Below, piece by piece: positions 7,084-15,163 of a stretch of 64,000 nt of DNA. How positions within the stretch are numbered: the first letter of the stretch is position 1; every line of letters starts with the position of its first letter. The position numbers were made by a program, and so were the translations under genes. The DNA comes from an uncultured bacterium (GTDB lineage Bacteria > CSSED10-310 > CAZUFC01): positions 1 to 64,000 of the forward strand of contig CAZUFC010000017.1 in assembly GCA_964619725.1 (NCBI GenBank), read 5' to 3'. Under the pieces are notes generated by a model that had not been told where the DNA came from, made no database searches, and saw nothing but the letters and a program-made list of their open reading frames with translations.

Positions 7084-8421
7084 TCAATTCCACCCGAAAG
7101 TCAATGTGCTCATGGAACCGAAAAGGTCACTCATGCCGGGATCGGTCAATGCGCCGTGGAATTTTATCCCGGAAGCCTCTCCTGCGCCGGAAGGCCAGGG
7201 AAACTCATCCAGTACGATAACTTTACTCAAGCCCGAAGGAAAAGTTCTTTCATAATAATCGACGCCTTCGAGGTAATGTTTCCAGGAGGGCGCGAACCAA
7301 TATTGGCCGAAAATATCGAGGATGACGAAAAGAGGATAACCGGTCAGCATATCGCCATCTTCGTTGTAAACCCAGGCCCATAGGTAGCAGTTGTCGCCGG
7401 CGTTAAAGAAGTCATCCGGCATTTCCAGAGTGACGCCGTTTTCAGGGGCTGCTGTAGCCGTAACCGAGGGTCCGGGCGACGGCGTTTCCGTTAAGAAAGG
7501 AGACGGCGTAAGGGTCGGTTCTTCCGTAAAAGTCGCTGTCGGAGAATTCGTCATCGTGCAAGTGGGAGTGGCGGTATATGTCGGCGTATCTGTCGGGACT
7601 GTCGTAGGCGTTCTGGTCGGAGTTCGGGACGGACTGACGGTTCCTGTCGGCGTATATGTCGGCGTTCCCGTTATGGTCGGCGTTCGAGTCGGCGTTCTGG
7701 TATTCTGATCGGGAAGCAGCCATTCGAGGTATCTGGCCATCACTTCCTGTTTGGTTCCTTCCAGTCCGTCTATCATGGCGCCGAAGATAAAAGTTTGATG
7801 TATCGTTCGGTAAGTTCCGTTCGTATGATAAACGGCCCTTCCGTTGTTGTCCTGACTTTTAAAATGAATGGTTCCGCCGTTCGCGCTTATTACGCTGACC
7901 CATTCATCCGGCGGGGTCCCGTAAGGATAATCCAACGCCAGTCCTTCCGCTATCGTACCTGCCTGACCTGTGACGCGACTGACGTTTCCTGTCGATCCGC
8001 CGTCGTTTACGTAATTACATCCGAAATAACCATATATCGGGTCGTCAGAGTGAAAATAACCGAAATCATTGAATCCGATGTAAACAGAACCGCCGCCGTT
8101 CAAATACTCAATTAAACTTGCTTGCTCAGACTGAGCAAGCTCCAGGTCGATTCCTCAGCAATACCACCCCATAGTTACGAATATAACGTCGTACTCCTCG
8201 GGATGCCCAGGCAGAGACAATCCTGTATCATAAGAGTAACCGTTGGCTTCCAAAGCCCGCTTCACGGCATACTCGGTCCCAACCATCATTCCGGACTCAG
8301 GATCCTGAAACTCATATCCCGGTCCCGCATCATTGTCCCATACGTAAATCTCTGCTGCATCACCCGAACAAACAATCGCAACCAACAACAAGAGGACGAC
8401 TGCAACGGCTTTGCTTTTCAT
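7084..8421 (-). CDS. Putative secreted selenoprotein (445 aa; in-frame TGA at 8155-8157, motif WYC-U-G) with Pro/Thr linker and conserved C-terminal domain
   Basis: ORFs 8155-8421 and 7084-8103 are in the same frame; linker reads GIDLELAQSEQASLIEYL with no stop; SECIS-like hairpin follows the TGA; signal peptide only in the upstream part. Confidence 0.7.
8120..8140 (-). promoter_or_regulatory. Candidate bacterial SECIS element
   Basis: GCUUGCUCA-GUC-UGAGCAAGC perfect 9-bp stem starting 15 nt after UGA; apical G at +24. Confidence 0.65.
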
Positions 8422-8870
8422 GAAACAAACCCTCCTATTTCCCGCAAATTTCCTCGACCATGAAAATTAATAACACGGTAACGTCGAAACGCTCCGCCAT
8501 ACGAAAAGATCGTTTTTTCCATTATCCCCATCCCTTTACCCTGATGCCGACTCACTCGGCCGACGGTATGGAGACGTTACACCCGCGGATCATTCTGAAA
8601 CGCATACAAATCGTTTCTGCGAACGCCCGAAATCAATTTCATTATATTGGCGCAAATGTACAATGTCAAAAACCTTACCCTACGAGGACTCTTTTCCGAT
8701 TTATTAAGCCGGCGGCGATTAGTGACACCCGACGACGGCTTTGTTATATTTGAACTCGGAAGTTGAGGTTCCTCGACCTCGCAAACTCAGCAGCTCGAAC
8801 CATGTTAAAATTATTCAGGCCGCTTTCGGCAGGTCGTTGATTTCTTCAATACTTAAGATGTAGGTTCGTC

Positions 8871-12877: not shown

Positions 12878-15163
12878 TTACTCAAAAGCAAAATGGACGC
12901 TTGCCGCCTCTCCGAAAAGGTCAGTCGTTCCGGGCCTGGTTAGTACAGCATAAAAGTAGAAAGGGCCGCCGGCTCCCAGAGGTTCGGGAAGAACGAATTC
13001 CAGGATCGGAACGGTTTCGATGCTCCAGGCGGGAACAGTCCTGAAATCGTAACGGATTTCCTGAGTCCAGAGAGGATAAAAATATAAAACGCCGTAAACG
13101 TCCAGGGCTACATAAAGGTCAGCACGCGTTTCCGGGCCCATATTCGTTATGACGGCATCAAGCAGAAAATCGTCGTTCGCCCGGTAAACCTGCCGGTTCA
13201 AATGAAGGCTTATTTCAGGATCACGCGGATTCTCCGTGGGAAAAGGTGAAGGCGTGGGCGACCAGTAAGGCGTCGGCGTAGGAGAGCAGCCCTCTGTGTA
13301 AAAATAATAGAATTCATCAACCAGCGAACCCGAAGGCGACCCCTCGTCCTGGACGCTGACGGAAATCTTAACCTGTTCGCATGTTGAAAAGTACTGTTCG
13401 GGCACATAATGTAATCCGGCCGCCTTGTAATCCTCGACAACTTCGGGGATGACTTCCTGGTCGTTCACTTTCATCGTTATCGTCTCCAGGTTGATGCCTT
13501 CCTCCAGGTCCCTCAATTCCAACCGTATGTCCGTCGATAACGGAACGCCCGCGCTGTCGTAATCTGGCTCCATTTCAGTAAAATACGGCCTCGGTCCTAT
13601 TCTATGGTACCCCATATCCAACGTTCCGAAATCCGGCACTATGTCTGTTCGCGTAAATCGTGAATGAAACGGCGTGCCTGCAGATTCGCGGCTGCCGGCA
13701 TTTATGCAGGGCGAACGTCCCAGGGAAATCTGGGCAGGCGCACCGGTGGAGGGTTCCGACAAGTAATAGTCATCCAGTTCGCCCGTGACGAATAAAGGGT
13801 CTGCAGAAATATTTCCGTCTATGCCGAATATGTCGGGTATCGTTCCCCCAATATCCCCGCCGGTACTGTGTCCGTAAATGTCAGTATGATATATTTTTAT
13901 CGCCTGGTCCGGCAACGCCCCTTTGTAATGAATGCCGTCTCCCAGCCTGTTGAAAGCTACAATAGAATCCTTCAGCTCCATCCCTGAATCATCGGAAATG
14001 TAAATGCCCGAACCGAACGTCTCAATGACGTGCCTTAACTCATTGTCCGCAACCGTGCAATTCGTAAGCCTTACATTGCAATTGCCCGCCGCCATGAATG
14101 CTCCCCCTAACTGCAAAGCCGCATTCTCAAAAAATAAACAGTTCTCAAATTCAACCTTGGCATTGCGGAAAACAGCAGCGCCGCCGCCGTTGAACGCCAC
14201 ATTCTCCTGAAATACGCAATCTTTTATCTTATAATAGTGTTCCTGCACTCCACTGTCCAACCATATGGCGATCAGCCCGGCCCCCGCCTCCTCACATTCA
14301 TTCTGATAAAAAACGCATGACTCGATTCGAGGCTCCGACTCATGCCACCAGCCCATTCCACCTCCGTGACTCGCTGAATTATGAGTAAACAAACAGTTTA
14401 TAAATGTGGGGTAACTTACCACAAACCATCCGCCGCCCCCCAGCGTCACCTTGTTTTCAGTGGGGTCCAACAATACCACGTGATTATCGGCAAAAGTGCA
14501 ATCTATAAACGTCGGCGCCGATGTCCACATGTGAAAACCGCCTCCCGTCACTTCGCTTCCCGCCGCCCCCGGAGGCATCTCCATTACGTTTCCCTCAACA
14601 AGACAATTGATGAAATAACTCGTCGAATTCAATAAGTATATGCCGCCGCCGCCGAAAGGATTGCCCTTTACGGCCTTGTTGCCCATAATACGGCAATCCT
14701 TTACCGTCATCGAACAGGCCGACATGCGTATTCCGCCGCCCCCGTCCGCTCTGCCGTTCGTTAACGTGAAACCATCAAAATATGCTGCATGAGCCCCCAC
14801 CACGCAACTTTGCGCCTGATTGCCGTCAACTGTCGTCTCGTACACCTCCGGATCACGCTCCCCAGCTCCCTCTGGCGGATAACCACCCAGAAATTCCGTT
14901 CCCTCTCTCAATACAAGATTCTCGACATAGGTTCCCTCTGCTACATGAACCACATCTCCGGCATTCGCCGCCGTCAACTCTATCGCCGCCGTAATAGTCG
15001 CTTTAGCCGCTTCCCAACTGGTTCCCTCATTTCCGTCACTCCCGTTCTCAGAATCCACATAAAAATGCGTACCGCCGTGCACAAACGGCGCTGCAGCCGC
15101 TAATGCCGCCGCCAGCATAAGCGCCCTCAAACCCAATGTTTTAAACTTTTTTCGTAAAGGCAT
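12878..15163 (-). CDS. Secreted right-handed beta-helix protein with Ig-like domain, PT linker and conserved C-terminal domain
   Basis: YVD..GSD.NEGTSW, TI..AI, GGG(I/A) and F..N repeats, NISADPLF; ends with domain similar to the 7084 protein; start placed at ATG 15163. Confidence 0.8.
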   Translation of the reverse strand: MPLRKKFKTLGLRALMLAAALAAAAPFVHGGTHFYVDSENGSDGNEGTSWEAAKATITAAIELTAANAGDVVHVAEGTYVENLVLREGTEFLGGYPPEGAGERDPEVYETTVDGNQAQSCVVGAHAAYFDGFTLTNGRADGGGGIRMSACSMTVKDCRIMGNKAVKGNPFGGGGIYLLNSTSYFINCLVEGNVMEMPPGAAGSEVTGGGFHMWTSAPTFIDCTFADNHVVLLDPTENKVTLGGGGWFVVSYPTFINCLFTHNSASHGGGMGWWHESEPRIESCVFYQNECEEAGAGLIAIWLDSGVQEHYYKIKDCVFQENVAFNGGGAAVFRNAKVEFENCLFFENAALQLGGAFMAAGNCNVRLTNCTVADNELRHVIETFGSGIYISDDSGMELKDSIVAFNRLGDGIHYKGALPDQAIKIYHTDIYGHSTGGDIGGTIPDIFGIDGNISADPLFVTGELDDYYLSEPSTGAPAQISLGRSPCINAGSRESAGTPFHSRFTRTDIVPDFGTLDMGYHRIGPRPYFTEMEPDYDSAGVPLSTDIRLELRDLEEGINLETITMKVNDQEVIPEVVEDYKAAGLHYVPEQYFSTCEQVKISVSVQDEGSPSGSLVDEFYYFYTEGCSPTPTPYWSPTPSPFPTENPRDPEISLHLNRQVYRANDDFLLDAVITNMGPETRADLYVALDVYGVLYFYPLWTQEIRYDFRTVPAWSIETVPILEFVLPEPLGAGGPFYFYAVLTRPGTTDLFGEAASVHFAFE

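Follow-up and report, generated by a model that had tools for sequence, protein, structure and literature searches.

An apparently uncatalogued family of putative exported selenoproteins with a Cys–Sec pair on a glutamine-amidotransferase-like fold

Does a lone TGA between two open reading frames of the same frame end a gene, or does it encode selenocysteine (Sec) within a longer protein, and what might such a protein do? The locus that raises this question lies in a 64,000-nucleotide stretch of DNA from the genome of an uncultured bacterium (the window). As a first-pass annotation had proposed, an 88-residue open reading frame (8155–8421) and a 339-residue frame with a TTG start (7084–8103) share one minus-strand frame and are split by a single TGA at 8155–8157; read-through gives a protein of 445 residues with Cys88-Sec89-Gly90 at the junction. 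The features of the gene are as follows.

7084–8421, minus strand: whole gene of 445 codons, in which a single internal TGA is read as Sec and the stop is the TGA at 7084–7086 (sequence, family comparison)
8356–8421, minus strand: predicted N-terminal signal peptide, residues 1–22 (by eye; similar leaders in relatives)
7702–8355, minus strand: Sec-bearing domain, residues 23–240, with a class I glutamine-amidotransferase (GATase)-like fold (AF2 model, Foldseek)
8155–8160, minus strand: Cys88 (8158–8160) and Sec89 (TGA, 8155–8157), in the loop after strand β3 (sequence, AF2 model)
8120–8140, minus strand: bSECIS-type hairpin with a 9-bp stem and a 3-nt loop, G first in the loop at +24 (folding, consensus constraints)
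7438–7701, minus strand: Thr/Pro/Ser-rich linker, residues 241–328 (sequence)
7087–7437, minus strand: C-terminal β-sandwich tail of about 117 residues (comparison of open reading frames across the genome, structure model)
8431–8436, minus strand: Shine–Dalgarno sequence AGGAGG upstream of the ATG at 8421 (sequence)
8641–8669, minus strand: σ70-type promoter match, 12/12 (by consensus match only)

The putative signal peptide, judged by eye, has a basic start, a hydrophobic core and an alanine at the likely cleavage site. The 445-codon gene appears to stand alone, and the promoter match would imply a leader of ∼210 nt (8422–8640, minus strand). This leader has no Rfam match of meaningful score, a folding z of −0.18 and no second copy in the genome; a local hairpin is present within it. 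Across a common intergenic region lies a divergent gene for an APH-family phosphotransferase (PF01636; 8871–9827, plus strand), which has a weak likeness, far under the cut-off, to APH(7'')-Ia and is not a recurrent neighbor in the loci of relatives. Among 62 fetched loci and the first 16 kb of the window, no neighborhood is conserved beyond close kin.

The genome of the window (G000) encodes selA, selB and two selD genes over the cut-offs, together with a tRNA-Sec (selC), and the Sec machinery that the first-pass annotation had asked for is thus present. The tRNA-Sec is the only tRNA with a TCA anticodon. Moreover, TGA terminates 1,688 of the 3,635 open reading frames of at least 300 residues, which indicates that the code is not globally changed. 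One selD (G000:C59:48405–49325) lies inside a 747-residue open frame without a stop, and the other (G000:C204:671–1600) has an in-frame TGA and a G-loop hairpin. A sequencing or assembly error, which had been named as a possible refutation, is argued against by runs X2 and X4, two further samples from this study, whose contigs bridge the TGA unchanged; a third run, X3, also covers it, with a flank too short to count, and run X1 may itself be the source.

Searching 1.84 billion protein representatives with residues 23–240 gave 548 matches. Among the best 150 of these, many start right after the Sec site, and two others end at the Cys, as does the 88-residue piece from the window. Pattern scans yielded 32 loci, 29 with TGA at the site, two intact Cys-free relatives and one without the region. 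As a single query, the window domain found no relatives in pattern scans of genome and metagenome contigs and only itself in word-based protein searches; the sequences in alignments A3 and A4 differ too much to serve for such scans. Phylum-wide searches, centered on named records, returned matches in 42 of 272 WOR-3 genomes (TGA inside 45 of 49 matches), 79 of 232 Cloacimonadota genomes (93 of 103, by our own row count), 26 of 70 Fermentibacterota genomes (26 of 27) and five of 167 genomes of one further phylum (7 of 7), with the position of the stop established only for the fetched loci.

Removal of duplicates from 113 fetched loci left 94 that are distinct. The site is TGA in 85 of these, comprising 54 CU, 30 CxxU and 1 TU forms (U, Sec), such that a Cys precedes U directly or at −3 in 84 of the 85. 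The other nine loci are five CxxC genes with TGC, one in which both residues are lost, two that are Cys-free and one without the region; neither TAA nor TAG occurs at the site in any of the 94. The homologs therefore carry TGA or Cys at this position, and the simple nonsense mutation for which the first-pass annotation had named Trp, Arg, Gly or Ser as the sign was not borne out. In the Fermentibacterota locus L219 (G657:C229), Cys, Sec and hairpin are all lost and the frame is intact, making it a natural negative control; Cys and Sec are also lost together in protein P0248. Among the genes from the further phylum, four are confirmed as CxxU, of which one was already counted as L131 and one matches L139, whereas in L228, L229 and the second gene of G125 the site was not resolved by pattern. 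One carrier genome is labeled Phycisphaerales, and membership of TA06 is taken from names in the cluster of P0008.

The Sec form was not seen in 13 other genomes of the phylum to which the window belongs, where only distant Cys-free homologs were found; two weak matches with one TGA in that phylum (G003:C30:20398–20922 and G008:C26:934–1461) may be terminal stops. In a quick tree the window protein groups with P0004, P0014, L127 and the TA06-type L133 (SH-aLRT 93), deep support being weak. An ESM Atlas look-up with a natural CxxC homolog returned mostly unnamed clusters, with DUF4960 and MJECL34 as leads only. Nine Cys-poor relatives (P0007, P0009, P0025, P0026, P0031, P0059, P0066, P0082 and P0101) have in common a short C-terminal tail, S/T-W/L/V-G-x-I/V-K/R-x-L-F/Y-R, which is possibly another sorting signal.

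The hairpin described by the first-pass annotation was reproduced as well: positions 8140–8120 form nine pairs closed by a GUC loop, beginning 15 nt past the UGA and placing the loop G at +24. For bSECIS elements, section 5 of PMC13188914 gives a loop of 3–9 nt with G in the first two loop positions, a stem of 4–16 bp, a spacing of 16–37 nt and a minimum free energy of −7.5 or lower. The window hairpin falls within these limits, with a loop of 3 nt, 9 bp, a spacing of 23 and a free energy of −12.6 kcal/mol. The 60 nt that follow the UGA fold with z = −2.3 relative to dinucleotide shuffles (5 of 200 equal or better), and a G-loop hairpin of −12.6 kcal/mol stability was reached in none of 300 synonymous recodings of the window peptide. 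On the 60 largest contigs, the contig of the window included, 304 stops have long open frames on either side; only two of them, both TGA, are followed by such a hairpin.

Conservation of the hairpin in homologs, which had been suggested as a check, was found in both main subgroups. Hairpins of −4 kcal/mol or lower are present at 52 of 54 CU loci and 25 of 30 CxxU loci, compared with 8.3 and 6.2, respectively, expected under synonymous recoding. In addition, a seven-pair stem across the family pairs in 80.8% of cells, five of its seven pairs change on both sides, and none of 500 shuffles reaches its covariation score, although the stem was named from the window sequence, itself a row of the alignment, and is to that extent favored over slid controls. 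RNAalifold gave no consensus structure on a 29-sequence alignment because the spacing is not constant from one subgroup to another. Four of the five CxxC genes retain the hairpin; about half or more of their synonymous recodings also fold, so in these four genes it may be partly forced by the peptide or a relic.

The family is also linked to the Sec machinery. A selA gene over the cut-off is present in 22 of 23 carrier genomes. The exception, the single-chromosome WOR-3 record G118, has an intact selB adjoined by only a C-terminal piece of selA, which may reflect an assembly fault or a rearrangement; this record carries a TGA form, L142 (G118:C1:1644088–1647378). In WOR-3, 35 of 38 TGA-form carriers have a selB match versus 122 of 272 genomes overall (our own cross-count, in which kin genomes are not independent and genomes are incomplete); three carriers gave no match. 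All five tested genomes with CxxC forms keep selA, which indicates that changes from Sec to Cys or from Cys to Sec took place within Sec users.

Collectively, these data argue that UGA89 is recoded by SelB, Sec-tRNA and the hairpin, such that the locus would encode one exported protein of 445 residues; from the sequence comparisons we put the probability of this at about 0.96. That the TGA is instead a true stop, a sequencing error or a Trp or Gly codon, with the hairpin serving as a terminator, is very improbable. The hairpin does score as terminator-like, three database proteins show Trp at the Sec site, and the window copy has lost residues that are conserved elsewhere. However, terminator-like sites in the region number two, against 2.5 expected by chance. 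The Trp-bearing proteins are probably gene calls made under TGA = W, since the cluster of one of the three also holds 85-residue forms that end at the Cys. As for a broken gene, the changes at 116–117 and 176 in the window copy are shared by its closest relative, P0004, which suggests a mark of the lineage and not decay. Trp or Gly recoding, termination and sequencing error were each rejected on the grounds of TGA conservation, the tRNA set, the terminator counts and the contigs from other samples.

The AF2 model of the Sec domain has a pLDDT of 95.4. Structural comparison (Foldseek; VIA) gave as its best match 2gk3 (STM3548; Z 17.1, rmsd 3.1, 190 residues aligned), followed by GH42 middle domains, ThuA-like proteins and IFT52 (GIFT). 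Overall, the fold matches have Z values of 13–17 and rmsds of ∼3–3.5 Å over 180–196 residues, with sequence identities of 8–17%. A PDB sequence search with the family profile gave no match (best E 0.45). A profile comparison with a CTP-synthase-like GATase domain of the genome produced no alignment; the mapping of loops thus rests on the order of secondary structure and GATase topology. In the model, Cys88-Sec89 is located on the loop between β3 and α2. Going by GATase/DJ-1 topology, we take this loop to be the counterpart of the oxyanion loop, at the edge of the sheet where the active site lies; there it would presumably adjoin the ends of β1 and β4. The end of β1 contributes Trp28 and Asp31, then Cys49, and that of β4 contributes Glu116-Gly117-x-Asp119.

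Across the 85 TGA loci, Glu116 and Asp176 are each conserved in 83, Gly117 in 76 and the third cysteine, Cys49, in 57; position 118 is variable, being Cys in 9 of the 54 CU proteins. This third Cys is near the same predicted face as the Cys–Sec pair in 28 of 30 CxxU and 38 of 54 CU proteins, whereas in the window copy the CU pair is alone there. Indeed, the window protein harbors Thr49, Gly116, Phe117 and Ser176 and so is without three residues that most relatives keep; P0004 has the same Gly116, Phe117 and Ser176. The elbow after β4, mapped by topology only, has no conserved Cys, and there is neither a conserved His nor a C-terminal His-x-Glu, and the Sec domain is therefore not a glutaminase. 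The conserved acidic residues are E116, D119, D172 and D176. Cys-free distant homologs have the E-G-x-D motif too, which ties it to the fold rather than to the Sec site.

Most members of the family start with a signal-peptide-like leader, as judged by eye, and their C-terminal ends differ between lineages. The window tail (∼117 residues, a β-sandwich with a model pLDDT of 96) recurs on 218 open reading frames of the genome, lying within 10 residues of the stop in 208 and preceded by a TP-rich stretch in 146. A second copy within the window (12881–13230, minus strand) follows a Thr/Pro linker. The tail has no Pfam match; its structural matches are generic Ig-like sandwiches (best Z 9.9, rmsd 3.0, 98 residues aligned), with no tail of the type 9 secretion system (T9SS) among the 50 matches listed. 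It is probably a lineage-specific sorting or anchoring tag. In the WOR-3 and Cloacimonadota proteins scanned, the C terminus is formed by a T9SS type A or FlgD-Ig tail, and the Fermentibacterota locus L120 has a C-terminal tail that looks similar by eye. SprA was found in all four of the relatives' genomes tested; in the window genome, which is 91% complete, it was not found with TIGR04189, a model that matched 0 of 14 controls. The tail is missing from a WOR-3 subgroup (L125, L126, L128, L130 and L157), whose members start with a lipoprotein-like leader and have an additional N-terminal domain. Close to L126 is a gene, shared with L125 and L130, that was labeled YedE-like by eye from the start of its sequence. 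The Cys-free distant homologs of the Sec domain sit inside large secreted proteins, including C25 peptidases, where this parent domain is an accessory module that is often repeated.

What, then, might the protein do? The pattern of motifs suggests a thiol/selenol redox protein of the envelope or cell surface, a reading to which we give roughly even odds. It is favored because the partner Cys is near-invariant, its spacing to the site alternates between CU, CxxU and CxxC, and in L219 and P0248 the loss of one of the two residues goes with the loss of the other. A Cys paired with Sec or Cys at such spacings is the pattern of the dithiol and selenothiol redox motif classes in Table 1 of PMC13188914. 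In the mechanism that we propose, the Cys–Sec pair on the post-β3 loop would cycle between the selenolate/thiol and selenenylsulfide states, and could thereby reduce disulfides, polysulfide or peroxides outside the cytoplasm, or keep secreted cysteine enzymes reduced. Recharging might come, probably via another exported redoxin, from the membrane carrier of DsbD/CcdA type that the genome encodes. The GATase-like body would act as a scaffold and not as a glutaminase, and the C-terminal tail would place the protein at the surface. By lineage, placement would rely on a T9SS type A tail in WOR-3, Cloacimonadota and Fermentibacterota, on an unrelated, lineage-specific tail in the window genome and on a lipoprotein-like leader in the tail-less WOR-3 subgroup. 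Several observations weigh against the redox reading. No conserved neighbors hint at a substrate or partner, GATase-like folds do not count among the known redox folds, and the window copy is without Glu116, Asp176 and Cys49. Moreover, although the genome has a gene with a DsbD transmembrane domain, genes of this type are widespread (10 of 14 controls). A bolder version, which we regard as rather doubtful, is that the family is a multi-phylum class of surface selenoenzymes in which a Cys–Sec loop was grafted onto a noncatalytic GATase-like module to provide an extracellular reductant for anaerobes. Delivered by T9SS or equivalent tails, such enzymes might open disulfides in protein substrates or keep gingipain-like cysteine proteases active; since the Cys-free module rides on C25 proteases in the datasets covered here, the Sec form would be a free-standing activator of that machinery.

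The main rival to the redox reading, though on balance unlikely, is that the Cys/Sec cluster of the exported protein binds a soft metal or metalloid (Hg, Cu, Ag, As or Cd) at the surface, as a sink, chaperone or sensor. The third Cys near the same predicted face and the conserved acidic residues are consistent with such a site, and section 29 of bioRxiv 10.1101/2022.07.06.499078 argues that CC and CU motifs signal interaction with heavy metals. However, no metal-transport or resistance genes recur as neighbors, the window copy has only its CU pair on that face, and the E-G-x-D motif is not restricted to Cys-bearing forms. A hydrolase or deglycase of the kind found among GATases and DJ-1 proteins, with Sec as a nucleophile at a relocated position, would fit the structural matches to class I GATases and ThuA-like proteins, the existence of a Sec-bearing GATase family (NF004836, GxUxG) and the fusion of Cys-free homologs to C25 peptidases. 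It is nonetheless improbable, as the elbow is Gly or Phe with no conserved His-x-Glu, and the near-invariant Cys at −1 or −3 would be superfluous for a hydrolase nucleophile. We likewise see little prospect that the Se–S pair is structural or adhesive, forming a stable intramolecular bond or a covalent surface link in a nonenzymatic component of the surface layer. The accessory, often repeated nature of the parent domain speaks for this, and GH42-type and GIFT-type domains of the GATase-like fold are noncatalytic; however, costly recoding across several phyla, with switching between CU and CxxU, would seem to fit chemistry better.

Known bacterial selenoenzymes are mostly metabolic. The present family, a large addition whose genes are cut into two by annotation, points to selenium-based chemistry on the cell surface of anaerobes that are common in sediments, mats and digesters. 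Both the scaffold that carries Sec and the position of Sec on it are absent from current catalogs. A single loop switches naturally between CU, CxxU and CxxC, and export is retained while the anchor differs between lineages. As natural CxxC members exist, its function can be tested by ordinary expression in Escherichia coli.

How does the family relate to known systems? In line with the earlier remark that it is not a recognized classical selenoprotein, the Sec domain matched no Pfam or NCBIfam 20.0 model in the window protein or in 11 relatives; a weak OS_HP2 match in P0010 falls on a different, Ig-like domain. Compared by description, the family is absent from the 119 prokaryotic selenoprotein families in Table 1 of PMC13188914, through which, together with NCBIfam, the families of Haft and Tolstoy 2025 were covered. 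No description was found in the portions covered of the literature, which include the deep-Sep (PMC12013277) and SelCysML (PMC13745706) papers, or in BSepDB (PMC13326102) outside its family table. The family of putative exported selenoproteins is real and widespread, and apparently uncatalogued. That annotation pipelines would split the gene was borne out: database entries for the family are split, three are read with Trp, and the database proteins of the tree set contain neither U nor X. Indeed, for a full-length WOR-3 member, 65 of 67 database matches cover only 41–74%, and any name that they carry comes from the tail.

The proposed likeness to thioredoxin reductase holds for the C-U-G motif and not beyond it, since that enzyme carries Gly-Cys-Sec-Gly at the C terminus of a flavoprotein, whereas the window motif is internal (residues 88–89 of 445), in a loop of a GATase-like domain, with no flavoprotein domain. 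SelW-like, AhpD/CMD-like and GrdA proteins have CxxU or CxxC in common with the 30 CxxU members and five CxxC loci, but their folds are of the thioredoxin or AhpD type. The fold itself is shared with STM3548, the GH42 middle domain, ThuA-like proteins and IFT52 GIFT, at the low identities given above, none of which is a selenoprotein in the catalog in PMC13188914 as far as its Table 1 goes. That table also lists NF004836, the Sec-bearing GATase family with the motif GxUxG. Both families combine a class I GATase-type fold with Sec; ours differs in having Sec on the β3 loop as CU or CxxU, Gly or Phe at the elbow, export and no match to NF004836. We take GxUxG to be the nucleophile elbow, by GATase motifs. 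With T9SS type A cargo (TIGR04183/PF18962) the WOR-3 and Cloacimonadota members share their tail, whereas the window protein matches neither model and ends in an unrelated tail. Further close parallels are the bSECIS-decoded CU selenoproteins SaoL (NF040728), SaoB (NF040727), HgcA (NF040863), MbdU (NF045648) and KCU-star (NF033934). Our family is set apart from these by a different fold, the lack of an NCBIfam match or conserved operon, and export with a C-terminal sorting tail. In common with them, it has an in-frame UGA, a G-loop hairpin 3′ of it and a vicinal Cys–Sec pair, and, like them, it is found split or truncated in databases.
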